Part shown: positions 9,173 to 37,298 of the stretch, piece after piece
How the letters are laid out: each line of letters starts with the position of its first letter
Position numbering within the stretch: position 1 is the stretch's first letter
From: a virus
Taxonomy: Duplodnaviria > Heunggongvirae > Uroviricota > Caudoviricetes
Direction: 5' to 3' (one strand)
Virus record (IMG/VR): IMGVR_UViG_2872158770_000003
DNA length: 37,298 nt
Position numbers and translations under genes: made by a program
Notes under the pieces: model-generated
The model's input: the letters and a program-made list of their open reading frames with translations, nothing else
What the model was told of the DNA's origin: nothing
The model's database searches: none

Positions 9173-9186
9173 CACTTATTTTCCCT

Positions 9187-9212: not shown

Positions 9213-9217
9213 AAATG

Positions 9218-9685: not shown

Positions 9686-9919
9686 CTCACAATTCAGTAA
9701 GTTGACAGTTGCCTGTCAGACTGGGCATTTGTTAAAAAAATTTCGCATGGTGAATCCCCCTGAGCGGAGGGGCGACTGGTGACGGTATAATCTCTGATTA
9801 TCAAAACGAGAATGACGCGGGTTTAGTGGCACCGGGCTGAACTCACCGGGAGGCACCCGGCACCATGTGCATGATGATACAGATACGCGGCTTTAGCCCC
9901 TCTCCGGAGGGGTTTTCTT
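9686..9919 (+). repeat. module B of the diverged tandem duplication; contains a perfect TATAAT at 9786-9791
   Basis: Same ordered blocks as module A about 467 bp downstream; preceded by terminator hairpin GGCCCA-TCCGCTCCGG-TGGGCC + TTTTT (9622-9649). Confidence 0.6.
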
Positions 9920-10147
9920 GTGGGCAAAAAAAGCCCGCGCTGGGAGACGCGGGCGGCAAGGAATAAACAATAAAACGTGAAGTAATATTTCAGCTGGCGA
10001 ATAATACCCCATAGTAATCACTCTGCGCAACTGCGCGGTCTTTTTCGAATTGCGGGCTGTCGTCTCTCTTCTGCCATTGTCCTGTAACTTCCGGACTTCA
10101 GCCCGCTCCTTATTTTACTCACAATATTATCCCGGCCGGGAGGATTC

Positions 10148-12912: not shown

Positions 12913-13119
12913 TTGGAATTCGCCAGTCACTCCGGGAATTAACTCTTTTCACCACAGTCTCCATTGCCGTGTTTAAACCAGTGGAGACGTCAATGTCCAA
13001 AAAGAGAAAATCCAGGAGCACTATGGAAACTTGTTTTAAGATCCTTCAGCTCAAGTTCGATAAGAAGCTGACTAACTGAGGTGTACTGGCAATAGCGGAC
13101 ACTACCATTTGTTCTTTTT

Positions 13120-13938
13120 TTAAGCAGCCATCTGATGATATTTTTCCCTGAAGGCTGCCGGGGAGATATTCCCCAGACGAGAGTGACGACGCTGACGATT
13201 GTAGAAAATCTCAATGTATTCCCGTATTACTGAGATGGCTTCATCCCGGTTATTAAAACGATAGTGGCTCAGGCTCTCATTTTTCAGCGTTCCCCAGAAG
13301 CTTTCCATCGGAGCGTTGTCGTAACAGTTACCTTTACGCGACATTGATGTTTTCAGACCAGACTGCTCCTGTATGACCCGGTAATCGTATGCGCAGTACT
13401 GTGAACCTCGATCAGAGTGGTGGATTAGCCCGGCAGGTGGGCGCTGGCTCCTGAGCGCCATAAACAGGGCTTTACCTGTCAGCTCTTTTGTCATGCGCTC
13501 TCCCATGGCGTAGCCGACAATTTCGCACGTATAAACATCTTTGATGCCAGCGAGGTACAACCATCCCTCCTGTGTGGCAACATACGTCAGGTCCGCCACC
13601 CAGACCTGATTTGGTGCTGTAGGAGCGAACGTCTGGTTCAGCAGATTTGGCGCAACTGGCAGATTGTGGTTCGAGTTCGTAGTCGCTCTGAACTTGCGTT
13701 TCTGCTTACAGCGTAGCCTTAGCTCCTTACGAAGACGTGCCAGTCGGTCACGACCAACGATGATGCCATTCTCTGCCAGCTCCGTCTGGAGCCGCCGGGT
13801 TCCATATGTTTCGCGAGTGCGGATATGTGCCACCTTAATCTCCAGTTTTAGCCGCTCATCACTTTGTTTTCTGTCTGAGGGTTCATGCTGTACCCAGTTG
13901 TAATAACCGCTCCTGGATACACCAAATACCTGACACAT
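13120..13938 (-). CDS. IS600 OrfB (272 aa)
   Basis: Same protein as 2140-2958 apart from one substitution (R/H). Confidence 0.9.
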   Translation of the reverse strand: MCQVFGVSRSGYYNWVQHEPSDRKQSDERLKLEIKVAHIRTRETYGTRRLQTELAENGIIVGRDRLARLRKELRLRCKQKRKFRATTNSNHNLPVAPNLLNQTFAPTAPNQVWVADLTYVATQEGWLYLAGIKDVYTCEIVGYAMGERMTKELTGKALFMALRSQRPPAGLIHHSDRGSQYCAYDYRVIQEQSGLKTSMSRKGNCYDNAPMESFWGTLKNESLSHYRFNNRDEAISVIREYIEIFYNRQRRHSRLGNISPAAFREKYHQMAA

Positions 13939-13973
13939 CGCTTCAATGGGAAATTGTTGTCGCCATTGTTCGA

Positions 13974-14276
13974 TTAACGCGTATTTTTCAGCGACTCCTG
14001 TGCAAAATACGCTGTTGCTTTTTTTAATATATCTCGCTCAAGGCGAGCTTCATTTAACGCCTTACGCAGTTGCAGAATTTCAGATTCCAGTTCAGCCACC
14101 GTGCGGGAACCAGGAGTACCGAGCCCTTTTCTGGCGGCGGTAACCCATTGTCCTAAAGTGCCTTCAGGAAGAGATAATCGGGAAGCGCCTTCACTGATCG
14201 AAAGTTGATTTTCAGGAACCGTTCTGACAGCTTCGGCTTTGAACTCTTTAGAGTAACGTTGGGTTTTTCTGCTCAT
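13974..14276 (-). CDS. IS600 OrfA (100 aa)
   Basis: Identical to 1802-2104 product. Confidence 0.9.
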   Translation of the reverse strand: MSRKTQRYSKEFKAEAVRTVPENQLSISEGASRLSLPEGTLGQWVTAARKGLGTPGSRTVAELESEILQLRKALNEARLERDILKKATAYFAQESLKNTR

Positions 14277-14332
14277 TATTAGCTCCTTCTGATGCCATTC
14301 TATTTCAGGAAGGAGTGTCCGTTAAACTCAGG

Positions 14333-14890
14333 CTACCTCAGCCGGAAGAACAGACTGGCTTCCTCTCTGTTCATCGGCAGATAGCCTATTTCATCCAGGA
14401 TCAACACCCGGGCATAACTCAGTTGCTGTAGCTGACGCTCCAGCCGGTTTTCCTGTTTCGCTTTCATCAGTGTCGCGATCAGTCTGTCCAGTGGCATAAA
14501 CAGTACCCGATGTCCCGCATCCACCGCTTTCACGCCAAGAGCTATGGCCAGATGAGTTTTTCCGACACCAGGAGGGCCCAGCAGGATCACGTTTTCGCTG
14601 CGCTCCACGAACGCCAGACCAGCCAGTTCCCGGACAACCTTACGGTCGATGCCCGGCTGGAAGGTAAAGTCGAACTGCTCCAGCGTTTTGACCCACGGCA
14701 GACGAGCCTGCTTCAGCCTGGACTCCATACCGCGCTGATGCCTGCCGTTCCATTCCTGCTGTAGCGCCATGCACAGGAACTCCCGGTAGTTCAGCTCTTT
14801 TTTAGCTGCCTGTTCCAGCAGGCTTTCAACGTGATAACTCAGATGCTCCATTTTCAGGCGACTCAGCAGGACTTCCAGTTCATGCATCAC
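14333..14890 (-). pseudogene. istB: IS21-family helper ATPase IstB, C-terminally truncated by IS600 (185 aa remain)
   Basis: Walker A LLGPPGVGKTHLA and Walker B VLILDEIGY present; frame runs into the IS600 terminus where a stop is supplied by IS600 sequence. Confidence 0.75.
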
Positions 14891-16160
14891 AACAGCTCCT
14901 CATAGGCACTCAGTGGTCGATGTTCCACCTGACTGACCTGCTGCCAGAGCGGGGCGTGATGCTCCGGCACTGTCTGCCAGCCAGACGATGCTGAACAGAG
15001 GCGATGTGAGGCCACCAGTTTCTCATTACTGTAGATCCGCAACTCGTCATCCAGCGATATTCGTATCGATACCGGCTGACCACACAGCGCTTCGGGAACG
15101 CTGTAACGATTACCACCAACCTCGATATAGCTGTCCCAGGACACATGGCGGATATCGAAGTAACTGGTATCGAAGTCTGTATCCGGTAACGGCTGCAGAT
15201 GTTCCTGCTCCAGCGCGAAGCGCTGTTCCGGCGTTTCTTTGAACTGGCGAAGCTCCCGTTTGTCAGCCACATCGGCTATCCATTGCTCCAGTTGTTGATT
15301 GACATGAGTGAAGCTGTCGAACCTGCGGTACCGGACGAAGAAGTTCTCCTTGAGGTATTTCACCATCCGCTCAACCTTACCTTTTGTTCTGGCCCTGCGT
15401 GGACGGCATGCCCGTGGCAGGAAGTTATAGTGGTCAGCCAGCAACAGGAATCCGGAGTTGAACACGACTTTCCCGTTGTTATTCTTCAGCACCGCAGCCT
15501 TCTGGTTATCAACCAGCACCGTTTTCACACAACCACCGAAGTAGCGGAAGGCGCGAACCAGTGATTCGTAGGTATGCTCAGCATCCTGTTTTGGTGCGGC
15601 GAAGACATGGAAGCTGCGGGAGAACCCCAGCGTATTAACCGCAAAGTTAACTTTGCACCGTTGCCCGGCAACCTCCACCTCAACTTCGCCCCAGTCATGC
15701 TGGAGCTGGTATCCAGGCTGAGTTTCGAAGCGAACTGTTCTTTTTGACGGACGCATTTTACGTTTGGGCTGGATGTAGTAACGCAGCATGGAACGTCCGC
15801 CCGTATAACCCATTGCCTTAATCTCCGCGAAGATAACCTCGCTATTCCAGACATTCTCTGCCAGGCGCATGTCGATGTAATCCATAAACGGTTTCAGCTT
15901 AACCATTTTGTGGCGGGTCTTTCTGGCTGGCGGTTCAGGGTATTTGAGGTAGCGTCTGACCGTCCGTTCAGAGCAACCAATCTGAGTCGCAATATCGACG
16001 ATGTACGCGCCCTGCTGGCGCATTTGCTTTATCATGTAAAAGTCCTCTCTGCTCAGCATGTTGATGTCCTTTCTGGTGTGAGAACCTTAAGGAAACAACA
16101 TGTTGGGTGGAGCGGACAATCCAAATGGCGAATTACCGTCTTATATCACTGGCGCTGACA
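14341..16160 (-). mobile_element. IS21-family element, partial: one terminus at 16160, other end removed by IS600
   Basis: istA then istB on minus strand; high-coordinate terminus reads ...CTGACA, placed where homology to FII begins at 16161; istB cut at the IS600 boundary. Confidence 0.6.
14887..16059 (-). CDS. istA: IS21-family transposase IstA (390 aa)
   Basis: N-terminal HTH and DDE integrase-core-like region; 4-nt overlap with istB as in IS21-family operons. Confidence 0.8.
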   Translation of the reverse strand: MLSREDFYMIKQMRQQGAYIVDIATQIGCSERTVRRYLKYPEPPARKTRHKMVKLKPFMDYIDMRLAENVWNSEVIFAEIKAMGYTGGRSMLRYYIQPKRKMRPSKRTVRFETQPGYQLQHDWGEVEVEVAGQRCKVNFAVNTLGFSRSFHVFAAPKQDAEHTYESLVRAFRYFGGCVKTVLVDNQKAAVLKNNNGKVVFNSGFLLLADHYNFLPRACRPRRARTKGKVERMVKYLKENFFVRYRRFDSFTHVNQQLEQWIADVADKRELRQFKETPEQRFALEQEHLQPLPDTDFDTSYFDIRHVSWDSYIEVGGNRYSVPEALCGQPVSIRISLDDELRIYSNEKLVASHRLCSASSGWQTVPEHHAPLWQQVSQVEHRPLSAYEELL

Positions 16161-21742: not shown

Positions 21743-22440
21743 TGCAGGATATTCGCGAAGAAAGTCTGAACGAGTCGGTTAAGTCAGAGCAGTCACCGCG
21801 GGTGGTACTCTGGGAAATCGACCTGACGGTACAGGGTGGTGAGCGGTATTTTTTCTGTAATGAGCTGAATGAAAAAGGGGAGCCGGTCACCTGGCAGGGG
21901 CGTAAGTATGAGGCATACCCGATTGACGGCAGCGGCTTTGAGATGAACGGCCGGGGCAGCAGTGCCAGACCGTCGCTGACGGTGTCCAATCTGTTCGGTC
22001 TGGTCACCGGGATGGCGGAAGACCTGCAGAGTCTGGTGGGGGCCACGGTGGTCCGCCGCCGGGTGTATGCCCGTTTTCTGGATGCGGTGAATTTCGTTGC
22101 GGGCAATCCGGAGGCGGACCCGGAGCAGGAGCTGAGTGACCGCTGGGTGGTGGAGCAGATGTCGCAGCTGACAGCCATGACGGCCTCGTTTGTGCTGGCT
22201 ACACCGACCGAGACGGACGGGGCGCTGTTTCCCGGTCGCATCATGCTGGCGAACACCTGTATGTGGGATTACCGGGGAGATGAATGCGGGTATAACGGTC
22301 CTGCGGTGGCGGATGAGTTCGACAACCCCACCACGGATATCCGTAAGGACAGATGCAGCAAGTGCATGCGCGGGTGTGAACTGCGCAGGAATGTCGGCAA
22401 TTTTGGCGGTTTCCTTTCCATTAATAAACTTTCGCAGTAA
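21742..22440 (+). CDS. L: tail tip protein L (232 aa)
   Basis: Length identical to lambda gpL; C-terminal cysteine cluster CSKCMRGCELRRN. Confidence 0.85.
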   Translation: MQDIREESLNESVKSEQSPRVVLWEIDLTVQGGERYFFCNELNEKGEPVTWQGRKYEAYPIDGSGFEMNGRGSSARPSLTVSNLFGLVTGMAEDLQSLVGATVVRRRVYARFLDAVNFVAGNPEADPEQELSDRWVVEQMSQLTAMTASFVLATPTETDGALFPGRIMLANTCMWDYRGDECGYNGPAVADEFDNPTTDIRKDRCSKCMRGCELRRNVGNFGGFLSINKLSQ

Positions 22441-22450
22441 ATCCCGGTTT

Positions 22451-23194
22451 ATGACACAGACTGAATCAGCGATTCTGGCACATGCCCGGCGGTGTGCGCC
22501 TGCGGAGTCGTGCGGCTTCGTGATAAGCACGCCGGAGGGGGAGCGGTATATCCCTTGTGTGAATATTTCCGCAGAGCCGGAGGCGTATTTTCGTATCGCA
22601 CCGGAAGACTGGCTGCGGGCAGAGATGCAGGGGGAGATTGTGGCACTGGTCCACAGTCATCCCGGTGGGCTGCCCTGGCTGAGCGAGGCTGACCGGCGGT
22701 TGCAGATAAAAAGCGCACTGCCCTGGTGGTTGGTCTGCCGGGGTGACATTCACAAATTCCGCTGTGTGCCACATCTGACAGGACGGCGCTTTGAGCACGG
22801 GGTGACGGACTGTTACACGCTGTTCCGGGATGCTTATCATCTGGCGGGGACTGAAATGCCGGATTTTCATCGCGAGGATGACTGGTGGCGCAACGGTCAG
22901 AACCTTTACCTGGACAATATGGCGGTCACCGGCTTTTACCGGGTGCCCCTGTCCTCTGCACAGGCGGGCGATATTCTGCTGTGCTGCTTTGGTGCTTCGG
23001 TACCGAACCATGCCGCCATTTACTGCGGCAACGGTGAGCTGCTTCACCATCTGCCTGAACAACTGAGTAAACGGGAGAGGTATTCCGAAAAATGGCAACG
23101 ACGAACGCATTCAGTCTGGCGTCACCGCCACTGGCACGCATCTGCCTTCACGGGGATTTACAACGATTTGGCCGCCGCCTTAGCCTGTATGTGA
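22451..23194 (+). CDS. K: tail tip assembly protein K (JAB/MPN plus NlpC/P60-like); start uncertain
   Basis: MTQTESAILAHARRCAPAESCGF...VHSHPGG (JAMM-like) then ...GVTDCYTLFRDAYHLAG (NlpC/P60-like Cys); 103-bp overlap with I as in lambda. Confidence 0.75.
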   Translation: MTQTESAILAHARRCAPAESCGFVISTPEGERYIPCVNISAEPEAYFRIAPEDWLRAEMQGEIVALVHSHPGGLPWLSEADRRLQIKSALPWWLVCRGDIHKFRCVPHLTGRRFEHGVTDCYTLFRDAYHLAGTEMPDFHREDDWWRNGQNLYLDNMAVTGFYRVPLSSAQAGDILLCCFGASVPNHAAIYCGNGELLHHLPEQLSKRERYSEKWQRRTHSVWRHRHWHASAFTGIYNDLAAALACM

Positions 23195-23772
23195 ACACGG
23201 CAGCGGAAGCCATTCGCGCCCTGTCGATGCAGATGCCGGGCTTTCGCCGTCAGATGAACGAAGGCTGGTACCAGATACGTATTGCCGGTTATGACACGGC
23301 ACCGGAGGCGGTGTACGCCCGTCTTCACGAACAGCTGGGTGAGGGAACGGTCATCCACATTGTGCCGCGACTGGCCGGGGCCGGAAAGGGTGGACTGCAG
23401 ATTGTGCTGGGGGCGGCAGCCATCGTGGGCTCTTTCTTCACTGCCGGGGCATCAATGGCGTTATGGGGTTCAGCCCTGGCAGCCGGTGGTTTTTCTGCCA
23501 CCACGATGCTGTTTTCACTTGGAGCCAGCATGATTCTGGGCGGTGTGGCCCAGATGCTGGCCCCGAAGGCAAAAACACCGGATTACCGCGCAACGGATAA
23601 CGGCAGACAGAACACGTACTTTTCCTCACTGGATAACATGATTGCCCAGGGGAACCCGATGCCGGTGCCTTACGGGGAAATGCTGGTTGGCTCCCGCCGT
23701 ATATCCCAGGACATCAGCACCCGTGATGAAGGCGGGGGCGGAAAGGTCGTGGTTATCGGGCGGCAGGGGTAA
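23092..23772 (+). CDS. I: tail tip assembly protein I (226 aa)
   Basis: MATTNAFSLASPPLARICLHGDLQRFGRR... and C-terminal QNTYFSSLDNMIAQGNPMPVPYGEMLVGSRRISQ match lambda gpI. Confidence 0.85.
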   Translation: MATTNAFSLASPPLARICLHGDLQRFGRRLSLYVNTAAEAIRALSMQMPGFRRQMNEGWYQIRIAGYDTAPEAVYARLHEQLGEGTVIHIVPRLAGAGKGGLQIVLGAAAIVGSFFTAGASMALWGSALAAGGFSATTMLFSLGASMILGGVAQMLAPKAKTPDYRATDNGRQNTYFSSLDNMIAQGNPMPVPYGEMLVGSRRISQDISTRDEGGGGKVVVIGRQG

Positions 23773-23985
23773 AAAGAATAAAAAAATCCCGCAGTGATCG
23801 CGGACAGGAACTGCGGGAGAGTTACGAAGATTAAGTGTAAGGAATTATTCTTATATCACGACAAAAAAATTAACGCAGAGAAATTATACGCGCCACAGTC
23901 AGTTTGTGAAAATGTGAAGATATTCAGAATTTTTATGCCATTACCGGTTTTAACCAACAGGATTATCGGTGGGCATGAAAGAAAA

Positions 23986-24018
23986 CCCCGGTATCTGCTG
24001 ATACCGGGGTTTCTCTTT
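23986..24018. terminator. strong hairpin with flanking T-runs in the I-J intergenic insert
   Basis: 9-bp stem CCCCGGTAT/ATACCGGGG, loop CTGCTG, followed by TTTCTCTTT; the opposite strand also has a T-rich tail. Confidence 0.55.
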
Positions 24019-24115
24019 AGCATGGCAGAAATGTGTTTCATGCTTTTCGGGCGAAGGATATCCGACTTCTGTACGGAATGGCAAGTGGCGGTTAATTTAT
24101 TCAGGGGAAGGCTGT

Positions 24116-27100
24116 ATGGGAAAAGGTGGCGGTAAGGCACACACGCCTCGTGAGGCGAAGGATAATCTCAAATCCACGCAGATGATGAGCGTGATTGATG
24201 CGATTGGTGAGGGACTGATAGAAGGTCCGGTGAAGGGACTGCAGAGTATCCTGGTGAACAAAACCCCGCTGACGGACACGGACGGTAATCCCGTGATACA
24301 CGGTGTGACGGCGGTCTGACGCGCCGGGGAGCAGGAGCAGACACCACCGGAAGGCTTTGAGTCCTCCGGTGCTGAAACCGGACTGGGCGTGGAAGTGACG
24401 AAGGCAAAACCGGTGACGCGCACCATTACGTCCGCGAACATTGACCGCCTGCGGGTTACCTTCGGGGTGCAGTCACTGGTGCAGACCACGTCAAAGGGTG
24501 ACCGAAACCCGACATCCGTCCGCCTGCTGATTCAGTTACAGCGTAACGGTAACTGGGTGACAGAAAAGGATGTCACCATTAACGGCAAGACCACCTCGCA
24601 GTTTCTGGCGTCGGTGATTCTGGATAATCTGCCTCCCCGTCCTTTTAACATCCGGATGGTCCGGGAGACAGCGGACAGCACCACGGACCAGCTGCAGAAT
24701 AAGACGCTGTGGTCGTCATACACCGAAATCATCGATGTGAAACAGTGCTACCCGAACACGGCCATTGTGGGGCTGCAGGTGGATGCGGAGCAGTTCGGCG
24801 GCCAGCAGATGACGGTGAACTACCATATCCGCGGTCGCATCATCCAGGTGCCGTCAAACTATGACCCGGAAAAACGCACGTACAGTGGTATCTGGGACGG
24901 TAGCCTGAAACCGGCATACAGCAACAATCCGGCCTGGTGTCTGTGGGACATGCTGACTCACCCGCGCTACGGCATGGGAAAACGTCTGGGGGCGGCGGAT
25001 GTGGACAAGTGGGCGCTGTATGCCATCGGGCAGTACTGCGACCAGACGGTCCCGGATAGTTTCGGGGAGACCGAGCCGCGGATGACCTTCAATGCGTACC
25101 TGGCACAACAGCGTAAGGCATGGGACGTGCTCAGTGATTTCTGCTCGGCGATGCGCTGTATGCCGGTATGGAACGGCCAGACGCTGACGTTTGTTCAGGA
25201 CCGCCCGTCGGATGTGGTGTGGCCGTACACCAACAGCGATGTGGTGGTGGATGATAACGGCGTGGGTTTCCGCTACAGCTTCAGTGCCCTGAAGGACCGG
25301 CACACGGCGGTGGAGGTGAATTATACCGACCCGCAGAACGGCTGGCAGACCTCCACGGAACTGGTGGAAGACCCGGAAGCCATACTGCGCTACGGACGCA
25401 ACCTGCTGAAGATGGACGCGTTCGGCTGTACCAGCCGCGGTCAGGCCCACCGTGCCGGACTGTGGGTGATAAAGACCGAACTGCTGGAAACGCAGACGGT
25501 GGATTTCACGCTCGGGTCTCAGGGGCTGCGGCACACACCCGGTGACATCATTGAAATCTGTGATAACGACTATGCCGGGACCCTGACCGGCGGACGTGTC
25601 CTGTCCATTGATGCTGCCACCCGCACTCTGACGCTGGACCGTGAAGTGACACTTCCGGAGACCGGTGCCGCCACGGTGAACCTGATTAACGGCAGCGGTA
25701 AGCCGGTGAGTGTGGACATCACCGAACACCCCGCGCCGGACCGGATACAGGTCAGTACCCTGCCTGATGGTGTGGGGACTCTCCCTGCCGTCACTGCGCC
25801 GTCTCCTGTTCCGCTGTGTCTCCGTCCGGGAAAACACGGACGGCACCTTTGCCATCACGGCGGTGCAGCACGTACTGGAAAAAGAAGCCATCGTGGATAA
25901 CGGTGCCCGCTTTGAGCCGCAGTCAGGTTCCCTGAACAGCGTCATCCCACCGGCAGTGCAGCACCTGACGGCCAGTATCTGGCGCAGGCGAAATGGGACA
26001 CGCCGCGGGTGGTGAAGGGTGTGCGCTTCAGTCTGCGCCTGACCAGTGGTAAGGGAACGGATGCCAGACTGGTGACCACCGCCATCACCGCAGACACGGA
26101 GCACCGTTTCAGCGGCCTGCCGCTCGGGGAATACACCCTGACGGTGCGGGCGATAAACAGCTATGGCCAGCAGGGTGAACCTGCCACCACCACCTTCCGG
26201 ATTGCCGCACCGGCAGCACCGTCGCGGATTGAGCTGACGCCGGGCTATTTTCAGATAACCGCAACGCCGCATCTTGCCGTTTATGACCCGACGGTACAGT
26301 TTGAGTTCTGGTTCTCGGAAAAGCGGATTGCGGATATCAGGCAGGTTGAAACCAGCGCCCGCTATCTTGGCACGGCGCTGTACTGGATAGCCGCCAGTAT
26401 CAATATCAAACCGGGCCATGATTATTATTTTTACGTTCGCAGTGTGAACACCGTTGGCAAATCGGCATTCGTGGAGGCTGTCGGTCGGGCGAGCGATGAT
26501 GCGGAAGGTTACTTGGATTTTTTCAAAGGAGAGATAGGGAAAACACATCTGGCTCAGGAGCTGTGGACGCAGATTGATAACGGTCAGCTTGCGCCTGACC
26601 TGGCTGAAATCAGGACGTCCATTACGGATGTCAGCAATGAAATCACGCAGACTGTCAATAAGAAACTGAAAGACCAGAGTGCGGCAATCCAGCAGATACA
26701 GAAGGTTCAGGTTGATACAAATAATAATCTGAACAGCATGTGGGCTGTGAAGCTGCAACAGATGAAGGACGGACGCCTTTATATTGCGGGTATCGGTGCC
26801 GGTATTGAGAATACGCCAGCAGGAATGCAGAGTCAGGTGCTGCTGGCGGCAGACAGGATTGCGATGATTAATCCTGCGAATGGCAACACAAAGCCGATGT
26901 TTGTTGGTCAGGGCGATCAGATATTCATGAACGACGTGTTCCTGAAACGCCTGACGGCTCCCACCATTACCAGCGGCGGTAATCCTCCGGCATTTTCCCT
27001 GACACCGGACGGAAAACTGACCGCTAAAAATGCAGATATCAGTGGCAGTGTGAATGCGAACGCCGGGACGCTCAACAATGTCACAATTAATGAGAACTGT

Positions 27101-27550
27101 CAGATTAAGGGGAAACTGTCAGCCAACCAGATTGAAGGCGATATAGTCAAAACAGTGGGTAAGGCTTTTCCGCGGGACTCCCGGGCACCGGAGCGGTGGC
27201 CATCAGGGACCATTACCGTCAGGATTTATGACGATCAGCCTTTTGACAGGCAAATTGTTATTCCGGCGGTGGCATTCAGCGGCGCTAAACATGAGCGGGA
27301 GAATAACGATATTTATTCGTCATGCCGCCTGATAGTACGGAAAAACGGTGCTGAAATTTATAACCGTACCGCGCTGGATAATACGCTGATTTACAGTGGT
27401 GTTATTGATATGCCAGCTGGTCGCGGCCACATGACGCTGGAGTTTTCGGTGTCAGCATGGCTGGTGAATAACTGGTATCCCACAGCAAGTATCAGCGATT
27501 TGCTGGTTGTGGTGATGAAGAAAGCCACCGCAGGCATCAGTATCAGCTGA
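24116..27550 (+). pseudogene. J: central tail fiber / host specificity protein J, inactivated by one in-frame stop and two frameshifts
   Basis: Lambda J-like sequence over the full length, but in-frame TGA at 24317-24319 and frame changes near 25775 and 25975 break it into three ORFs (67, 503 and 513 aa). Confidence 0.85.
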
Positions 27551-27569
27551 ATTTTATAACCCATATACG

Positions 27570-27594
27570 GGCGCCAGAAATGGCGCCTTTTTTA
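27570..27594 (+). terminator. rho-independent terminator downstream of J
   Basis: Stem GGCGCC, loop AGAAAT, stem GGCGCC, then TTTTTT. Confidence 0.7.
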
Positions 27595-27617
27595 TTGCAG
27601 AAAAGCGAGAGGTAATT

Positions 27618-28217
27618 ATGCGTAAAGTTTGTGCAGCCATTTTGTCCGCAGCCATCTGTCTGTCCGTATCCGGTGCGCCTGCATGGGCGTCTGAACATCA
27701 GTCCACACTGAGCGCGGGGTATCTTCATGCCCGTACGAACGCTCCCGGCAGCGATAATCTGAACGGGATTAACGTGAAATACCGTTATGAGTTTACGGAC
27801 GCGCTGGGGCTGATTACGTCCTTCAGTTATGCCAATGCTGAGGATGAGCAAAAAACGCACTACAGCGATACCCGCTGGCATGAAGATTCCGTGCGTAACC
27901 GCTGGTTCAGCGTGATGGCGGGGCCGTCTGTACGCGTGAATGAATGGTTCAGCGCGTATGCGATGGTGGGTGTGGCTTACAGCCGTGTGTCGACTTTCTC
28001 CGGGGATTATCTCCGCGTAACTGACAACAAGGGGAAAACGCACGATGTGCTGACCGGAAGTGATGACGGTCGCCACAGCAACACGTCTCTGGCGTGGGGG
28101 GCTGGCGTGCAGTTTAACCCGACCGAATCCGTGACCATTGACCTTGCTTATGAAGGTTCCGGTAGTGGTGACTGGCGAACGGATGCATTTATTGTTGGTA
28201 TCGGATACCGTATCTGA
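27618..28217 (+). CDS. lom: Ail/Lom-family outer membrane beta-barrel protein (199 aa)
   Basis: Signal peptide MRKVCAAILSAAICLSVSGAPAWA; alternating aromatic beta-strand pattern ending ...FIVGIGYRI; position after J as in lambda. Confidence 0.8.
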   Translation: MRKVCAAILSAAICLSVSGAPAWASEHQSTLSAGYLHARTNAPGSDNLNGINVKYRYEFTDALGLITSFSYANAEDEQKTHYSDTRWHEDSVRNRWFSVMAGPSVRVNEWFSAYAMVGVAYSRVSTFSGDYLRVTDNKGKTHDVLTGSDDGRHSNTSLAWGAGVQFNPTESVTIDLAYEGSGSGDWRTDAFIVGIGYRI

Positions 28218-28321
28218 CAACAGACGCCGATTTATCTTCTGTAAATATTGTTATGATACGCAGGTTCATCCACCTTATGGGGTGAACTGCGTTTGAGGAA
28301 ACGTAAAGTTACACTGTCCTG

Positions 28322-28354
28322 AAGCCCGTGGCGTCACTGCTGCGGGCTTTTTTT
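28322..28354 (+). terminator. possible terminator between lom and stf
   Basis: Stem AGCCCG/CGGGCT with a 14-nt loop, followed by TTTTTTT. Confidence 0.45.
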
Positions 28355-28368
28355 ATTGGTGGAAAAGT

Positions 28369-30996
28369 ATGACAGTAAAAATTTCTGGCGTGCTTAAAGA
28401 TGGCACAGGAAAACCAGTACAGAACTGCACCATTGTGCTGAAGGCCAGACGAACCAGCAGCACGATGGTGGTGAACACGGTGGCCTCTGAAAATCCGGAT
28501 GAAGCCGGACGTTACAGCATGGATGTTGAGCATGGTCAGTACAGCGTCACCCTGCTGGTTGAAGGTTTTCCGCCTTCACATGCCGGGACCATTACCGTCT
28601 ATGAAGGTTCCAGACCAGGTACGCTGAATGATTTTCTCGGTGCCATGACGGAGGATGATGTCCGACCGGAGGCACTGCGCCGCTTTGAGCAGATGGTGGA
28701 AGAGGTGTCACGTAACGCCTCCGCGGTTGCACAGAATACGGCAGCCGCGAAAAAATCAGCCAGCGAGGCGGCAACTCATGCAACCGATGCTGCAGCCTCA
28801 GCACGTGCCGCCAGCACGTCAGCCGGACAGGCCGCGTCGTCGGCTCAGTCAGCGTCTTCCAGCGCAGGAACGGCATCGACAAAGGCCCGTGAAGCAGCAA
28901 AAAGTGCTGCTGCAGAGTCATCAAAAAGCGCGGCAGCTACCAGCGCCAGTGCCGCGAAAACGTCAGAAACGAATGCCGCAGCATCACAAAAATCGGCAGC
29001 CACTTCTGCATCCACAGCGACCACGAAGGCGTCAGAAGCTGCCACCTCGGCACGGGGTGCGGCGGCCTCAAAAGAGGCAGCGAAATCTTCAGAAACGAAT
29101 GCATCATCAAGTGCCAGTAGTGCAGCTTCCTCGGCAACGGCGGCAGGAAATTCCGCGAAGGCGGCAAAAACGTCCGAGACGAACGCTAAGTCTTCTGAAA
29201 CAGCAGCGGGACAGAGCGCCTCAGCTGCGGCAGGTTCAAAAACAGCGGCTGCATTATCTGCCAGTGCCGCGTCAACAAGTGCCGGGCAGGCCTCAGCCAG
29301 TGCCACCGCCGCCGGAAAATCGGCAGAAAGCGCCGCATCATCCGCTTCAACAGCCACAACGAAGGCTGGCAAAGCCACTGAGCAAGCCACTGCAGCAGCG
29401 AGGTCTGCTTCTGCAGCAAAAACCTCTGAAACAAATGCAAAGACTTCAGCAGACAATGCTGCTTCCTCTAAGGCAGCAGCCGCATCGTCAGCCAGTTCAG
29501 CGGCGTCATCGGCATCATCTGCGTCTGCTTCAAAAGATGAGGCGACCAGACAAGCGTCAGCAGCGAAAGGTAGTGCCACGACAGCAACAACGAAAGCATC
29601 AGAGGCGGCAGGCAGTGCGACGGCTGCATCTCAGAGCAAAGTTGCTGCTGAATCCGCGGCAACGCGCGCCGAGACAGCAGCAAAACGGGCAGAGGATATT
29701 GCATCCGCCGTGGCGCTGGAGGATGCGAGCACGACGAAAAAGGGGATAGTACAGCTCAGCAGTGCGACCAACAGCACTTCCGAGTCACTGGCGGCAACGC
29801 CAAAAGCGGTTAAGGCGGTAATGGGTGAAACGAACAAGAAAGCGCCCTTAAATAGTCCTGCACTGACCGGAACGCCAACAACACCAACTGCGCGACAGGG
29901 AACGAATAATACCCAAATCGCAAGCACGGCTTTCGTTATGGCTGCGATTGCCGCCCTTGTAGATTCGTCACCTGATGCACTGAACACGCTGAACGAGCTG
30001 GCTGCGGCGCTGGGCAACGACCCGAATTTTGCGACCACCATGACTAACGCGCTTGCGGGTAAGCAACCGAAAGATGCCACCCTGACGGCGCTGGCCGGAC
30101 TTACTACTGCGGCAGGCAAGTTTCCGTATTTTACGGGGAATGATGTCGCCAGCCTGGCAACCCTGACAAAAGTCGGGCGGGATATTCTTGCGAAATCGAC
30201 CGTTGCTGCCGTTATCGAATACCTCGGTTTACGAGAACTCGGCACAAGCGGGGAGAAAATACCGTTACTCAGTACAGCGAATACCTGGACTAATCGACAA
30301 ACATTCAGCGGTGGCCTTTCTGGTGAACTATCCGGCAATGCTTCTACAGCTGCAAAATTAAAAACTGCCAGGAAAATAAGCAATGTGGCTTTTGATGGTT
30401 CCTCCGATATCACATTAAAAGCAAGTCATGTTGGTGCGTTTGCCTTAGGGAAAACAGGAAGCACCGTTGCGAATGATAAAGCAGTTGGATGGAACTGGAG
30501 TAGCGGAGCCTATAACGCAACTATTAGTGGTGCATCAACGTTAATTATTCATTTTTATATGGGAGAAGGAAGTTGTCCTGCAGCTCAGTTTCGGATTAAT
30601 TATAAAAATGGCGGTATTTTTTATCGTTCAGCCCGTGATGGTTATGGTTTTGAAGCCGACTGGTCCGAATTTTACACCACCAGAAAACCTTCAGCAGGAG
30701 ATGTTGGTGCACTGCCGTTATCTGGTGGTCAACTGAATGGTGCACTGGGTATCGGAACATCCAGTGCTCTTGGCGGTAATTCGATTGTATTGGGTGATAA
30801 TGACACGGGCTTTAAACAAAAAGGCGATGGTAATCTGGATGTTTATGCTAATAACGTCCATGTTATGCGCTTTGTCTCCGGAAGCATTCAAAGTAATAAA
30901 ACCATAAATATTACGGGACGTGTTAATCCCTCGGATTACGGTAACTTTGATTCCCGCTATGTGAGAGATGTCAGACTTGGCACACGAGTTGTTTAG
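28369..30996 (+). CDS. stf: side tail fiber protein Stf (875 aa to an in-frame amber; frame continues to 31146)
   Basis: Lambda Stf-like N-terminus MTVKISGVLKDGTGKPVQNCTIVLKARRTSSTMVVNTVASE; long Ala/Ser/Thr-rich repeat region; crosses invertase crossover site at 30212-30237. Confidence 0.8.
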   Translation: MTVKISGVLKDGTGKPVQNCTIVLKARRTSSTMVVNTVASENPDEAGRYSMDVEHGQYSVTLLVEGFPPSHAGTITVYEGSRPGTLNDFLGAMTEDDVRPEALRRFEQMVEEVSRNASAVAQNTAAAKKSASEAATHATDAAASARAASTSAGQAASSAQSASSSAGTASTKAREAAKSAAAESSKSAAATSASAAKTSETNAAASQKSAATSASTATTKASEAATSARGAAASKEAAKSSETNASSSASSAASSATAAGNSAKAAKTSETNAKSSETAAGQSASAAAGSKTAAALSASAASTSAGQASASATAAGKSAESAASSASTATTKAGKATEQATAAARSASAAKTSETNAKTSADNAASSKAAAASSASSAASSASSASASKDEATRQASAAKGSATTATTKASEAAGSATAASQSKVAAESAATRAETAAKRAEDIASAVALEDASTTKKGIVQLSSATNSTSESLAATPKAVKAVMGETNKKAPLNSPALTGTPTTPTARQGTNNTQIASTAFVMAAIAALVDSSPDALNTLNELAAALGNDPNFATTMTNALAGKQPKDATLTALAGLTTAAGKFPYFTGNDVASLATLTKVGRDILAKSTVAAVIEYLGLRELGTSGEKIPLLSTANTWTNRQTFSGGLSGELSGNASTAAKLKTARKISNVAFDGSSDITLKASHVGAFALGKTGSTVANDKAVGWNWSSGAYNATISGASTLIIHFYMGEGSCPAAQFRINYKNGGIFYRSARDGYGFEADWSEFYTTRKPSAGDVGALPLSGGQLNGALGIGTSSALGGNSIVLGDNDTGFKQKGDGNLDVYANNVHVMRFVSGSIQSNKTINITGRVNPSDYGNFDSRYVRDVRLGTRVV
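30212..30237. other. Pin/Gin/Hin-type invertase crossover site (left), inside stf
   Basis: TTATCGAATACCTCGGTTTACGAGAA is an inverted match (22/26) to the site at 33127-33153. Confidence 0.65.
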
Positions 30997-31148
30997 ACCA
31001 TGAAGAAAGGCGTGATGTATGAAAAATCAGGCCATGTAATCACGGGGCTTGGTATTATCGGTGAAGTCGATGGTGATGATCCGGCAGTATTCAGACCAAT
31101 ACAAAAGTTAATTAACGGAACATGGTATAACGTATCGCAGGTATAATC

Positions 31149-31682
31149 ATGCAGCATTTAAAAAACATTGTCGCAGGTAATCCAAAAACCGTTGAACAAT
31201 ACCAGCTAACAAAGAATTTTGATGTTATCTGGTTATGGTCCGAAGATGGAAAAAATTGGCATGAGGAATTAAAAAACTTTCAGGAGGATACAATAAAACT
31301 GGCTTACACAGTTGAGGGAATAATTATTGCTATAGACAAGGATGTATCAGCAATTAATCCAGAAGGTTTAAGTGTCGTTGAGTTGCCTGATATTACAGCA
31401 AATCGCCGGGCTGATATTTCGGGCAACTGGATGTTCAAAGATGGTGCGGTGATAAAGCGAACTTATACCGAGGAAGAGCAAAGGCAACAAGCGGAAAATG
31501 AAAAGCAGAGCCTGCTGCAGCTCGTCAGGGATAAAACCCAGCTGTGGGACTCTCAGCTACAGCTGGGCATCATTTCCGATGAGAATAAACAAAAATTAAC
31601 CGAGTGGATGCTCTATGCGCAGAAGGTTGAATCCACAGACACCTCCAGCCTGCCAGTAACGTTTCCCGAACAACCAGAATGA
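31149..31682 (+). CDS. tfa: tail fiber assembly protein Tfa (177 aa)
   Basis: N-terminus [22 protein letters not shown]... typical of Tfa chaperones; paralogous to the minus-strand copy at 31711-32238. Confidence 0.75.
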
Positions 31683-31685
31683 GAG

Positions 31686-31714
31686 AAGGCCCGCTATCGG
31701 GCCTTAATTTTTAT
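31686..31714 (+). terminator. terminator hairpin between the convergent tfa genes
   Basis: 8-bp stem AAGGCCCG/CGGGCCTT, loop CTAT, then AATTTTTATT. Confidence 0.6.
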
Positions 31715-32238
31715 TCAGGCTTTTGTGGCCATTCAGGATTTGCCGTATCCACACGGCTGACCAGAACACTGTAGCGTTCCCATGCTTCCAGTCGTGTGCG
31801 TTCCTCGTCTGTTGCCATATTCAGCCTGACAGCGCGTTCCAGCGGCTGGATGACTGATTCAGCTTCGGAAAGCAATGCGGCCTTTTGTGATTCGGCCTGT
31901 TGTTGCAGTTCCTGTTCTGTATATTCCCTCTTTACTACTTTACCATCCAGAAACATCCATTTTCCGTTATTGTCTGCGTGACGATTTGCCGTAATATCAG
32001 GAACTTCAACTATGCTTAGCCCTTCAGGATTAATAGTTGAAACGTCTTTACTGACAGCAACGATGATGTTGTTCTCATCGTAAGCAATTTTTATGGTGTC
32101 TGGCTGAAAATTCTTTTGTTCCTCATACCAGTTTTTGCCATCTTCGCAAAAGAGCCATACCACGCCCGCTTTTTTAGTTAGCTGGTATTGTTCCGGTGTT
32201 TTCGGATTCCCGGCCTTAATATTTTTCAGGTGCATCAT
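31711..32238 (-). CDS. tfa: alternative tail fiber assembly protein Tfa' (about 175 aa from MHLKN)
   Basis: [21 protein letters not shown]...[25 protein letters not shown]; ORF track's longer 31711-32274 form overlaps the stf' end. Confidence 0.7.
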
Positions 32239-32239
32239 C

Positions 32240-33126
32240 TTAAACACTCCCCACGTTGTACCATATTCCCCCAATCAATTTCTGAATTGGCCTTCTGGCA
32301 ACAGTGTCGACAATATCATCCGCATTGCTGTTAATTGCGGCTGTTAAAACATAACCTGACGCATCGCCAAAGCCGTAGTCGCGCCATACGTTTTTATATT
32401 CAATGCTGCCAAGACGAATATCCCGAACGACATGATTATGCAGCCATGTGCTTAACCAGTTGTTTTCCCACACTGAACCATAAATATCGCCACTAGACGC
32501 AACTTGCGCACCACTTCCCAGCGCAAATCCCCCATCTGTTTTAAAAATGAAATCACCACCACCATCTGAACCGTTATTAATATGAACACCATCACCACCG
32601 TTATCTTTCCACAAAAACATACGAATTCTTCCGTCTTCGTTGGCGAATGTAATGTGGTGGCGGTAATTACTTTTTAATCTAAAATTGCTGCCATTAGATT
32701 CAATATCTTTATAAAGATGTAATCCTAACTCATCAATATGTCCGATGCGCGAACCATTTGAATAGAAGCTAATAATACCATCTCCATCTTGCCTAAATCC
32801 GGTGTCGTTATCTCCCAGAACAATGGAGTTTTCACCCAGTGCGTTATCAGTAGCTCCAATAGCTAGACCTCCTTTAATTTTGGCCCCGTGGCTGACAGAT
32901 ATAGCACCTGTTCTCAGATTTATAGCGAATGGCCTTAATGGGCCGATATTACCGTTTTCGCCTTGTCCTTCAGCCGTCGGAATGAAATGAAGAAAATCTT
33001 CTGAACGACGGAAAATTAGACCGAAGGTATCATTGAAAATTCGCAGCGCATTCACCGTGCCAATTTTCAGTTCTCCGGTCATTTTATCGCCGGAACGCTG
33101 AACGGCGTTACCAGCCTTGTTTACCG
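32240..33126 (-). CDS. alternative side-tail-fiber C-terminal cassette (Stf'), no own start; would fuse to stf constant part after inversion
   Basis: Minus-strand frame open from the crossover site; ends ...[17 protein letters not shown], homologous to the plus-strand stf end; recombining the half-sites gives an in-frame junction. Confidence 0.6.
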
Positions 33127-33153
33127 TTTCCTGTAAACCGAGGTTTTAGATAA
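33127..33153. other. Pin/Gin/Hin-type invertase crossover site (right), next to the invertase gene
   Basis: TTTCCTGTAAACCGAGGTTTTAGATAA; reverse complement matches 30212-30237. Confidence 0.65.
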
Positions 33154-33207
33154 TGGCGGTTTCTGGCCTGCATGGCATGATTTGTGCTTTTGGACGGGAG
33201 ATTCAGC

Positions 33208-33450
33208 GTGCTGATTGGCTATGTAAGGGTATCAACAAATGACCAGAATACAGACCTGCAACGAAACGCTCTTGTTTGTGCAGGATATGAACAAATATTT
33301 GAAGATAAATTAAGCGGAACAAGGACAGGCCGACCTGGATTAAAACGTGCTTTAAAGCGCCTTCAAAAAGGTGACGCACTGGTTGTCTGAAAACTGGACT
33401 GACTGGGTCACTGTATGCGGCATCTTGTCGTGCTGGTGGTGGAAGCCTAG
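33208..33450 (+). pseudogene. pin: serine DNA invertase (Pin/Gin/Hin family), decayed: in-frame stops and loss of C-terminal half
   Basis: GTG start; LIGYVRVSTNDQNTDLQRNALVCAGYEQIFEDKLSGTRTGRPGLKRALKRLQKGDALVV has the catalytic Ser region; then TGA at 33388-33390 and further stops, and the rest of the gene is absent. Confidence 0.75.
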
Positions 33451-33534
33451 AAAAAGTATCGGGTGTTGCTGAACCGTGTTGATACATCAACTGCACCTGA
33501 TATTGAGTGGCCTACGAACCCTGTCAGGGAGTAA
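33451..33534 (+). pseudogene. 3' remnant of a tfa gene fused to the pin remnant
   Basis: Translates [26 protein letters not shown], the conserved Tfa C-terminal motif; near-identical DNA recurs at 34509-34583. Confidence 0.5.
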
Positions 33535-33588
33535 TCATTGGGATTATGCCGCAGCACGTCTTAAGCAAGAACGTGCTGCGGTTGGATG

Positions 33589-34257
33589 CTATTTTTTCCC
33601 TGAAGCGGAAAACATTACTACAGTACCTTGAACCCTGGTTTTAACATTCTCGAAATGCTCTGAGAGTATATGTGTTAAGCCTTCTTCGGAATCTTTTGTG
33701 TTTGAAAAGATGCCTTTCTGATTGTAAATGCGCATCAGTTTTTGACCGAAGCTATTGTGCACAACTCCATCGCCAAGAATTGTGGCTCCGTATAGAGTTC
33801 CATCGTCAGTTAAGGCCTGCGCCGCATTGCGTATTACACAGCTTTTTGTAGATATATTTCCAGGCAGGCAGTGAAGAAGGTAAAACATGGAAATGGAATC
33901 AAATTGACCATGTAACGCCGCGGGATAAGGTTCAAAAACATCATGGCTAATTTTATGTTTAATTTTTGATTCCCCAGCCCTTGTAGATGCCGCGTTCAGG
34001 CTAGCTTCGTTCAAATCCATTAAAGATATCAGACTACTCTCAGGTACGTGAGTAAGGTAAAACCCAGTTCCAACACCAATATCCAGATGGTTGTTACCTA
34101 AATGTTCCAGAAAGTGTGGAAGAAGGTGTTCCTTTGTAGGACATCCCCATGCAAGCCGATTTGATACTCCCAAAACCCACCAGTCATAAAGCTTTAGGGT
34201 AAGTGGTGTGTAAATTTTAGCCCCATCATCTGTGTTTGTTTTCATTGATTTCACCAT
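33589..34257 (-). CDS. class I SAM-dependent methyltransferase (222 aa), probably small-molecule/protein type
   Basis: Rossmann motif I HLDIGVGTGFYL and downstream acidic residue; single minus-strand gene between two direct repeats. Confidence 0.7.
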   Translation of the reverse strand: MVKSMKTNTDDGAKIYTPLTLKLYDWWVLGVSNRLAWGCPTKEHLLPHFLEHLGNNHLDIGVGTGFYLTHVPESSLISLMDLNEASLNAASTRAGESKIKHKISHDVFEPYPAALHGQFDSISMFYLLHCLPGNISTKSCVIRNAAQALTDDGTLYGATILGDGVVHNSFGQKLMRIYNQKGIFSNTKDSEEGLTHILSEHFENVKTRVQGTVVMFSASGKK

Positions 34258-34349
34258 GTTATAGTTTTATTTGTGAATTAAATCAATTATGGCGATGAAT
34301 TACAAGGGGTTAAATGCTGCCGCAGCATAGCGATATTGAAATAGCCTAG

Positions 34350-34583
34350 TATGCTTCGATACAGCAGGAGCCGAATGGCTGGAAGACCGTCACCACACAG
34401 TTCTACATCCAGGAATTTAGTGAGTATATTGCGCCACTGCAGGATGCTGTAGATCTGGAAATCGCAACGGAGGAAGAAAGATCGTTGCTGGAGGCATGGA
34501 ATAAATATCGGGTATTGTTGAATCGTGTTGATACATCAACTGCACCTGATATTGAGTGGCCTGCAAATCCTGTCAGGGAGTAA
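34350..34583 (+). pseudogene. 3' fragment of a tfa gene
   Basis: In-frame from a TAG at 34347; ends ...[37 protein letters not shown]; no start codon. Confidence 0.5.
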
Positions 34584-34657
34584 TCATTGGGATTATGCCG
34601 CAGGTGATGCTGCCAACTTACTGATTTAGTGTATGATGGTGTTTTTGAGGTGCTCCA

Positions 34658-34933
34658 GTGGCTTCTGTTTCTATCAGCTGTCCCTCCTGTTCAGCTACTG
34701 ACGGGGTGGTGCGTAACGGCAAAAGCACTGCCGGACATCAGCGCTATCTCTGCTCTCACTGCCGTAAAACATGGCAACTGCAGTTCACTTACACCGCTTC
34801 TCAACCCGGTACGCACCAGAAAATCATTGATATGGCCATGAATGGCGTTGGATGCCGGGCAACTGCACGCATTATGGGCGTTGGCCTCAACACGATTTTA
34901 CGTCACTTAAAAAACTCAGGCCGCAGTCGGTAA
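34658..34933 (+). CDS. insA: IS1 InsA
   Basis: Same protein as 945-1220 with one substitution (G/S at residue 21). Confidence 0.9.
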
Positions 34934-35355
34934 CCTCGCGCATACAGCCGGGCAGTGACGTCATCGTCTGCGCGGAAATGGACGAACAGTGGGGCTATGT
35001 CGGGGCTAAATCGCGCCAGCGCTGGCTGTTTTACGCGTATGACAGTCTCCGGAAGACGGTTGTTGCGCACGTATTCGGTGAACGCACTATGGCGACGCTG
35101 GGGCGTCTTATGAGCCTGCTGTCACCCTTTGACGTGGTGATATGGATGACGGATGGCTGGCCGCTGTATGAATCCCGCCTGAAGGGAAAGCTGCACGTAA
35201 TCAGCAAGCGATATACGCAGCGAATTGAGCGGCATAACCTGAATCTGAGGCAGCACCTGGCACGGCTGGGACGGAAGTCGCTGTCGTTCTCAAAATCGGT
35301 GGAGCTGCATGACAAAGTCATCGGGCATTATCTGAACATAAAACACTATCAATAA
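34852..35355 (+). CDS. insB: IS1 InsB reading frame
   Basis: Identical to 523-1026 product. Confidence 0.9.
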
Positions 35356-35399
35356 GTTGGAGTCATTACCTATGCCGCAGACACGTCGTATGCAGGAAC

Positions 35400-35645
35400 G
35401 TGCTGCGGTTAGTTTGTGAGCTTTCGATAGTGGTTGTTATTTTTGCCCTTATTTGTTCCGGAGGCCATGGTTCAATGGTCCGTCTGCCCCCTGTGGTGAT
35501 GTCAGCAAAATCAGCCACTGCGCGAACCACAATAGCCCGGGAAGATGCTGAAGATCACCAGGTAAAGCTGTCAGCGCAGAAACTGGAAGAACTGCTCGCA
35601 TCAATGGTTAAGGATGAGGTTGATCGCAATGATGGGATTTATTGA
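35400..35645 (+). CDS. hypothetical small protein (81 aa; alternative start)
   Basis: ORF directly after the repeat interrupted by IS1; N-terminal hydrophobic segment; no family recognised. Confidence 0.35.
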   Translation: MLRLVCELSIVVVIFALICSGGHGSMVRLPPVVMSAKSATARTTIAREDAEDHQVKLSAQKLEELLASMVKDEVDRNDGIY

Positions 35646-35771
35646 CGTCAGCGAGAGCAGAAGGAAGAACTGAATAACCTGAATGATTTACGCTCAATCA
35701 GAGCGATGGCGATTAGCGGCAATCACGCTCGATAAAATTAACCTCGGTGATCATCCGGGGTTTTGCATTCA

Positions 35772-36344
35772 TTAAAACCGCATCAACCTTTCCACCAATT
35801 GTTCTTTACGGGCAACGATCCACCCATGTTGCTCCAGATAAAATTTAAACCGTTCCAGAGTGCATACCATCGCATCGGCGGGGACTTTTTCTGTGAACTC
35901 GACCTGACCGTGTTTATCGAAGTGGATCAGTAATGCGCATCCATTATTTGGGGCGGGGGAGTTTTGTGCTGCAGGAGGACGTTTGTGGAGTTCTTCTTCC
36001 ATTGCGTTAAATTTTTCAATGTAAGCTTCTTTTAGTCTGGCTGCTTTTTTGCCAGTAAATCCCATTACGAGGAACATGAAGCCGTCTTTTGTGATCAGGT
36101 AGCATCGTGATTCACGTTCTGCGCCGTTGCCAATTTCGACAGTCTGAACATCGGCCGAAAAGTTGGCTGATGTAAATTCGGGAGAGCAGTCGAGTGTGTC
36201 AATCTTAGCTAAAACGTGTTTATGTTGTTTATCGAAGTAGTCGGCAACAGCTTGAGAGGTGGTAACCAGGCGACCATCTTTGAAAAAGACTTTTGGTGAC
36301 TCGTTAGAAAAAGTTATAGCTGTATTCATATGTGATGACTCCAA
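35772..36344 (-). CDS. Rha-family phage regulatory protein (190 aa)
   Basis: N-terminal LVTTSQAVADYFDKQHKHVLAKIDTL resembles the Rha/ORF6 N-terminal domain signature. Confidence 0.55.
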   Translation of the reverse strand: MESSHMNTAITFSNESPKVFFKDGRLVTTSQAVADYFDKQHKHVLAKIDTLDCSPEFTSANFSADVQTVEIGNGAERESRCYLITKDGFMFLVMGFTGKKAARLKEAYIEKFNAMEEELHKRPPAAQNSPAPNNGCALLIHFDKHGQVEFTEKVPADAMVCTLERFKFYLEQHGWIVARKEQLVERLMRF

Positions 36345-36904
36345 TTAATTGGATGATCACCACCTCTGACGCCAATCAGGGAGGTGGTGAGACGTACAGG
36401 GTTGGCGTAACCGGTCATCACAAAACCCGGCGCGGATTTCTCCGCCCCTGCACGCCCCACCATAATGCGAATGTGGCAATGCTTAACGCAAAAAAAACCG
36501 CAAACGCGGCTATGCGTTGTGATGTTATCCGAGACGCCAATCCCGACAACCGATTTTGCGGTTGTGTGAGGAATATAGCCCCGGAGAACAAAAACTGTCA
36601 ACGGGCAAAAAAATTTCCGTTATCAGGAATGTATAAAATTAAAGCGATCGAGCAAAAAATCCTTTCTGCAAAACTAAAAAAGATTTCAATAAAATCAGGC
36701 AGTTAAAAACACGGAAAAACGGTATAAAAAAGCGCCTCAAAATCCTGTTTTTTCTTTCAGATACAATGTCTTATTGCATTTTTTAAAACATGTCAGTGTG
36801 GTACATGGATATCGATACCATCGCCAATTATAAACTGGGCGGTGCACAGCAACATGATAGCGTACGCCTCGATCCGTGGGTGTTTATGTTCTCAGCAGGA
36901 TATC

Positions 36905-37298
36905 GGGTAATGACTCCAACTTATTGATAGTGTTTTATGTTCAGATAATGCCCGATGACTTTGTCATGCAGCTCCACCGATTTTGAGAACGACAGCGACT
37001 TCCGTCCCAGCCGTGCCAGGTGCTGCCTCAGATTCAGGTTATGCCGCTCAATTCGCTGCGTATATCGCTTGCTGATTACGTGCAGCTTTCCCTTCAGGCG
37101 GGATTCATACAGCGGCCAGCCATCCGTCATCCATATCACCACGTCAAAGGGTGACAGCAGGCTCATAAGACGCCCCAGCGTCGCCATAGTGCGTTCACCG
37201 AATACGTGCGCAACAACCGTCTTCCGGAGACTGTCATACGCGTAAAACAGCCAGCGCTGGCGCGATTTAGCCCCGACATAGCCCCACTGTTCGTCCAT
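36905..37298 (-). mobile_element. IS1, third copy, partial (runs off window end)
   Basis: Terminal repeat GGTAATGACTCCAACTTATTGATAGTG at 36905; sequence identical to the insB end of the other copies. Confidence 0.9.
36921..37298 (-). CDS. insB: IS1 InsB, partial at window edge
   Basis: Translation identical to the C-terminal 125 aa of InsB. Confidence 0.85.

Follow-up and report, generated by a model that had tools for sequence, protein, structure and literature searches.

The 37,298-nucleotide (nt) window analyzed here, IMG/VR virus record IMGVR_UViG_2872158770_000003 (Caudoviricetes), carries a side-tail-fibre gene, stf, that is interrupted by an in-frame TAG shortly before the end shared by its relatives. 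Is this amber codon an ordinary loss-of-function mutation or a special coding device? We consider it very probable that it is the former, a CAG to TAG change in the stf cassette of a decaying Shigella sonnei prophage. As now read, stf is an 875-codon open reading frame (ORF) on the plus strand (28369..30996; 875 amino acids (aa); PF08400 phage_tail_N). The TAG that ends it lies at 30994..30996 (+), where an earlier note made from the sequence alone had placed it. Past the TAG, the frame runs through 49 sense codons to a TAA, the 50th codon, at 31144-31146. The open frame described in the note was therefore correct, and its count of 50 codons included the TAA. Because an open run of this length is expected about once in ten by chance ((61/64)^49 ~0.1, by simple arithmetic), openness is weak evidence and homology decides instead. 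The translated tail matches the C-terminus of the minus-strand cassette at 32240..33082 with 19 of 41 residues identical (E = 3e-08), which bears out the homology to the alternative Stf' cassette that the note had proposed. The tail is the orphaned 3′ end of stf, corresponding to a distal tip module (30997..31146, +), and gene-calling programs list it as an ORF of 48 aa that starts at an ATG at 31000. Two bases past the TAA is the ATG of tfa (31149..31682, +; PF02413 Caudo_TAP, 4.8e-34), the tail fibre assembly chaperone gene of the amber-bearing cassette.

A glutamine codon turned amber in Shigella sonnei stf

A 701-nt probe around the site detected relatives in 1,094 Escherichia coli genomes and 83 phage records. 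Four relatives were fetched and aligned across the stop codon with MAFFT: E. coli OZ040035, E. coli NCTC86 and the P2-like phages L-413C and vB_EcoM-569R9. All four, that is, the E. coli prophages as well as the gpH genes of the P2-like phages, have CAG (glutamine, Gln) where the window has TAG, and their fibre genes continue unbroken until 2-3 nt before tfa. The proposal in the earlier note that the stop truncates Stf ahead of a homologous C-terminal module thus holds, as the intact relatives read through this position to the shared end. Both E. coli prophages keep the gene order seen here. The OZ040035 relative is 98.6% identical, encodes an intact 935-aa Stf and has, in this sequence, J, lom, stf, tfa, tfa′, a truncated stf′, a remnant of the recombinase gene pin and a methyltransferase. 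The 147 nt after the TAG are identical to those of NCTC86 (147/147) and differ from those of OZ040035 by one synonymous base, and all 49 residues past the stop are shared with the Stf of both genomes. Upstream of the stop, the variable cassette has 13 differences from NCTC86, three of which are not real but extra bases where the compared stretch begins on its 5′ side. The change is a single C-to-T transition from CAG (Gln) to TAG. As no substitution relative to NCTC86 separates the 147 nt past the stop, we infer that the mutation is young.

The last ~230 residues of L-413C gpH are near-identical to those of the window's cassette, and the cognate tfa is the next gene. Unlike stf of the window, the gpH/gpG genes of L-413C and 569R9, and the genes for Mu S and TfaMu, are uninterrupted. 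The phage records list only “tail fiber protein” followed by “tail fiber assembly protein,” with no further gene in between. Likewise, we found no separately encoded tip adhesin in the phage and E. coli records, which show one fibre gene directly before tfa. Most hits of a broader protein search were partial or short (none above 256 aa), so that the search bears on the residue at the amber position and not on full-length architecture. Of its 120 representative homologues, 104 have a sense residue where the window has TAG (Gln in 55 of them, followed by N, G, K, Y and others) and none has a natural terminus there; the sole nearby C-terminus is that of a fragment at the end of a 648-nt contig. 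The note had held that intact phages ending naturally at this position, with a separately translated downstream ORF, would speak against its reading; none occurs among the homologues or phage records. A 71-nt megablast probe across the TAG had no match in the phage collection, which is uninformative because the phage relatives, at ~90% identity, contain no exact word of 28 nt.

The window is 100% identical to CP026802.1 across 22369-36996 (14.6 kilobases (kb) compared), and therefore derives from S. sonnei. The TAG is present in all 18 S. sonnei loci fetched, in 21 copies, some draft contigs holding two. The loci with TAG include complete chromosomes from different projects (HE616528.1, CP026802.1, CP044151.1, CP179990.1, CP023645.1 and CP022672.1), of which HE616528.1 is strain 53G (PMC5447701, where S. 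sonnei lineages are listed) and CP026802.1 is ATCC 29930 (PMC9430107). In a public assembly collection, the exact 875-aa product occurs in 72 blocks and the 48-aa leftover ORF in 2,201 blocks; the 18 loci were retrieved from these matches. A 71-nt probe that includes the TAG had no full match among 5,426 complete E. coli genomes. The best matches were 70/71, and the mismatch is a C at 30994 in NCTC86 and OZ040035, the two checked directly. Within the genomes examined, the amber mutation is specific to S. sonnei.

Alternative readings of the stop

The window differs from its relatives at this codon by only a single base, as would be the case if the TAG were a sequencing or assembly error and the true base at 30994 were C. 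However, the 21 copies come from 18 independently assembled S. sonnei loci and the 48-aa ORF is widespread in the assembly collection, which leaves this explanation with virtually no chance and upholds the base call that the note had marked for confirmation. It is very unlikely that the amber is decoded, by a suppressor transfer RNA (tRNA) or by programmed readthrough, with full-length fibre still being produced. In favor of decoding, the frame past the stop is undamaged and, given the change from CAG, a suppressor that inserts Gln would give back exactly the ancestral protein; however, the youth of the mutation explains the undamaged frame. Moreover, the stop is conserved in no relative, nothing has evolved around it, and the tRNAs of the window are only Met-CAT, Arg-TCG and Arg-TCT. 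Two specific routes to decoding were considered and rejected. One was a phage-borne suppressor tRNA, as there is no CUA anticodon among the three tRNAs of the window; the other was a readthrough-promoting RNA structure past the stop, where z = -1.1 and 29 of the 200 shuffled sequences are as stable or more so.

A two-piece fibre would involve termination at the TAG, a restart at the ATG at 31000 and non-covalent association of the 48-aa peptide with the truncated fibre. This ATG is only 4 nt past the stop (TAGACCATG) and the 48-aa ORF is called by gene callers, but the intact gene has this ATG as a conserved Met codon within its frame (..VVQTMKKG..), no clear Shine-Dalgarno sequence could be read ahead of it, and no homologue is organized as two genes. 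We regard such a fibre as extremely improbable. The truncation may also have been selected instead of drifting, for example by silencing a harmful or immunogenic fibre tip, in line with the fixation of TAG in all the S. sonnei loci seen. We give this scarcely any probability, because S. sonnei is a single young clone in which fixation needs no selection, and because independent lesions in the neighboring genes J and pin and the loss of the head genes form a pattern of neutral decay.

An ordinary loss-of-function mutation would account for the locus as follows. The C-to-T transition probably arose in the S. sonnei lineage, in a prophage that was already decaying. The amber lies 14 nt into the last exchangeable module, a distal tip of ~50 residues that travels with its Tfa chaperone. 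In the window orientation, translation would end after residue 875, the tip would not be made and a functional fibre would not be expected. A flip of a 2.9-kb segment, as in 53G, pairs the constant part of stf with the other, intact cassette and leaves the amber cassette silent. The mutation was presumably fixed by clonal descent under neutral drift; in a remnant fibre gene without selection for virion function, a fixed nonsense mutation is the expected outcome. The features of a nonsense pseudogene are present, namely a one-base change from the orthologous sense codon, a homologous downstream frame and recurrence in independent assemblies. Three considerations weigh on the other side. A chromosomal amber suppressor in the host is conceivable, as the tRNA survey covered the window; stf may or may not be transcribed from this remnant; and the predicted loss of function of the truncated product rests on homology to Mu S. 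Overall, the interpretation given in the earlier note is supported, and we add to it the invertible cassette, the defective state of the prophage and the finding that nothing in the window supports suppression.

A change from CAG to TAG is a textbook amber change, restorable by a Gln-inserting suppressor. Campbell's sus mutants are reportedly classical amber nonsense mutations in phage structural genes, and Hendrix and Duda are said to have described the stf frameshift of laboratory lambda PaPa in 1992. As in the sus ambers and lambda PaPa stf, a point lesion here truncates a lambdoid side-tail-fibre gene and leaves the downstream coding sequence recognizable. Unlike in lambda PaPa, where a frameshift occurs in an otherwise viable phage, the lesion lies in an invertible cassette within a cryptic prophage remnant of a natural pathogen. 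Nothing in this is new in kind: it is ordinary pseudogenization, and a further pseudogene in S. sonnei, whose genome decay is well known, matters little in a prophage without head genes. In annotations, the 875-aa ORF and the 48-aa “hypothetical protein” are best joined and marked as a single stf pseudogene, and the 2.9-kb segment is best marked as invertible, since it confuses draft assemblies. Among the genomes examined, CAG to TAG is also a clean S. sonnei-specific marker.

The fibre tip and the invertible segment

The last 76 residues of the intact protein align to residues 424-502 of Mu protein S in the solved S-TfaMu complex (5YVQ, 504 aa; E = 1.1e-15), as well as with the end of the Mu S/S′ construct 8JU3. 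Both alignments cross the amber position without a break. Given this match to the solved Mu S, the 49 lost residues belong to the folded distal end of the fibre and not to a dispensable extension. As quoted from the Mu structure paper, Mu Tfa attaches to the distal fibre and is required for fibre folding and trimerization (PMC9608196). By this homology, the truncated product is predicted to be non-functional.

The tip is exchangeable. In many E. coli genomes the match to the probe stops at window position 30980, in others it starts only at ~30935, and the alternative cassette of OZ040035 and NCTC86 is 98% identical to window positions 30208-30980 and divergent beyond. The conserved linker ..NPSDYGNFDSRYVRDVRLGT.. 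is the joint between the modules, and the amber codon occurs 14 nt past it. The region from 30935 to 30980 is a sharp mosaic joint, with E. coli genomes sharing either the shaft part or the tip and tfa, and rarely both. A Pfam scan of an intact 934-aa homologue identified only PF08400, at the N-terminus. A cleaved intramolecular chaperone of the endosialidase or T5 pb1 type was rejected for the C-terminal module, as there is no Peptidase_S74-type domain and the Mu S chain retains the aligned residues. A precomputed gp37_C match, on the 203-aa and 391-aa ORFs, was not recovered in the full-length homologue scan (E ≤ 0.01) and was not used. A 3-nt deletion at window position 30675 has also cost the cassette one Thr codon of the conserved ..EFYTTTRKPSAGD.. 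motif, which reads TTT in Mu S′ and in every relative examined.

The stf gene consists of a constant region, which extends to ~30207, and a variable cassette, Sv, which begins at 30238 and is closed by the amber codon. The left crossover site, an inverted repeat arm (GCCGTTATCGAATACCTCGGTTTACGAGAA), is located at 30208..30237, and comparison of ATCC 29930 with 53G puts the breakpoint of the inversion at 30208-30232. The right crossover site (TTCCTGTAAACCGAGGTTTTAGATAATGGC; 33128..33157) was identified from the inverted repeat and the 53G comparison. The two arms are 30 nt each, 83% complementary and bound a 2.9-kb segment; they may resemble the gix/cix consensus (TTCCTGTAAACCGAGGTTTTGGATAA). 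Between the arms are, in order, the amber cassette, tfa, a hairpin, tfa′ and Sv′. The hairpin (31686..31705) is GC-rich and terminator-like, with a T run, and sits between the convergent tfa genes at the center of the segment. The chaperone gene of the alternative cassette, tfa′ (31711..32238, -), is called with 175 aa in related loci. The alternative C-terminal cassette of the fibre, Sv′ (32240..33127, -; PF20744 gp37_trimer) is open in frame to the crossover site and is silent in the window orientation.

In 53G and two other S. sonnei assemblies, the region from 30208/30232 to 33133/33157 is inverted, and the flanks are identical. By locus, L014, L016 and L019 have the opposite orientation to L005, L007, L009, L017 and L018. 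In the flipped state, as in 53G, Sv′ follows the constant part of stf and the two encode an uninterrupted 918-aa protein, while the amber cassette is silent and appears as a 203-aa ORF and a 48-aa ORF. As the TAG lies within the invertible cassette, the truncation applies only in the window orientation.

Next to the segment is a remnant of a pin-type serine invertase gene (33184..33390, +) that begins MLIGYVRVSTNDQNTDLQRNAL... and ends after 68 codons at a TGA (33388-33390); a second in-frame TGA (33400-33402) occurs four codons on. PF00239 Resolvase was matched over profile positions 2-69 of 145 only, and we detected no functional serine invertase gene adjacent to the segment. Judged against the Gin/Pin sequence (..LVVWKLDRLGRS..), the two TGA codons would be TGG to TGA and CGA to TGA transitions. 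The remainder of pin is replaced by a tfa fragment and an S-adenosylmethionine (SAM) methyltransferase gene (33589-34257, -).

By its architecture, the segment belongs to the Din family (Gin/Cin/Pin/Hin), and it is no longer autonomous. As in the Mu G (gin), P1 C (cin) and E. coli e14 P (pin) segments, the constant 5′ part of the fibre gene is outside the segment, two opposed 3′ cassettes each have a tfa gene, crossover sites flank them, a serine invertase gene adjoins, and both orientations occur in nature. Unlike in those segments, the invertase is truncated after 68 codons and one cassette has a nonsense codon. Both orientations were found across S. sonnei strains although pin is truncated in all of them, which suggests that the segment is inverted by an invertase acting in trans. 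If such an invertase still flips the switch, the amber could have turned an A/B choice of host range into an ON/OFF control of full-length fibre, put to a non-virion use by the cell. Alternatively, a little full-length fibre could still come from low-level readthrough of the TAG. Either has only a slim chance.

Two assembly patterns involve the segment. The long-read contig UGZB01000001.1 contains both orientations, one ~15 kb from its start and the other ~10 kb from its end, as if a circular overlap had been left untrimmed and a mixed culture captured in it. Four draft contigs (L004, L006, L008 and L010) have several cassette copies strung together in alternating orientation, with the amber codon twice per contig. 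These alternating copies are most likely an assembly artefact of inversion heterogeneity and not a real duplication.

Decay of the prophage

The prophage is lambdoid and defective: its head genes are lost, J is split, pin is truncated and several insertion sequence (IS) elements are present. The tail-tip gene J (24389-27550) is broken by stops at 25898 and 25913 into ORFs of 503 aa and 513 aa. Compared with other S. sonnei, in which J is split into 547 aa and 513 aa, the window and ATCC 29930 have an additional 17-nt deletion at ~25769. IS1 is present at each end of the window, and again past the methyltransferase gene. No terminase, portal or capsid gene was detected in the window, and the whole head-morphogenesis region is missing between 12686 and 16250. 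We conclude that the head genes are gone because directly after the lysis region come an IS3-family element (13120-14276), an IS21-family element with istA/istB (14333-16059) and the tail genes, which start with gpZ at 16250.

Upstream of this junction, the Pfam-supported genes encode a DUF968 protein (4994-6052), a Q antiterminator (6430-7251), a DNA methylase (7824-8882) and a 617-aa sialate-esterase-like protein (10148-12001). Three tRNA genes, Met(CAT), Arg(TCG) and Arg(TCT), are located at 8923-9172, and a holin and a DUF1327 protein, named from related loci, extend up to 12686. The late region from 6430 to 12001 is laid out as in Shiga toxin (Stx)-converting phages, with Q, DNA methylase, tRNA-Met/Arg/Arg and the sialate-esterase-like protein. 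The 976 nt from the tRNAs to the sialate-esterase-like gene contain no ORF longer than 77 aa, and toxin genes are therefore absent.

In five other S. sonnei loci (L012, L013, L015, L020 and L021), Sv′ is cut at window position 32528 by an IS3-family copy and joined to the lysis region. The window stretches compared with the IS3-family copy that cuts Sv′ in those loci were 1737-3001 and 13077-14340. The junction indicates an IS-mediated rearrangement or deletion of tail genes in those S. sonnei chromosomes.

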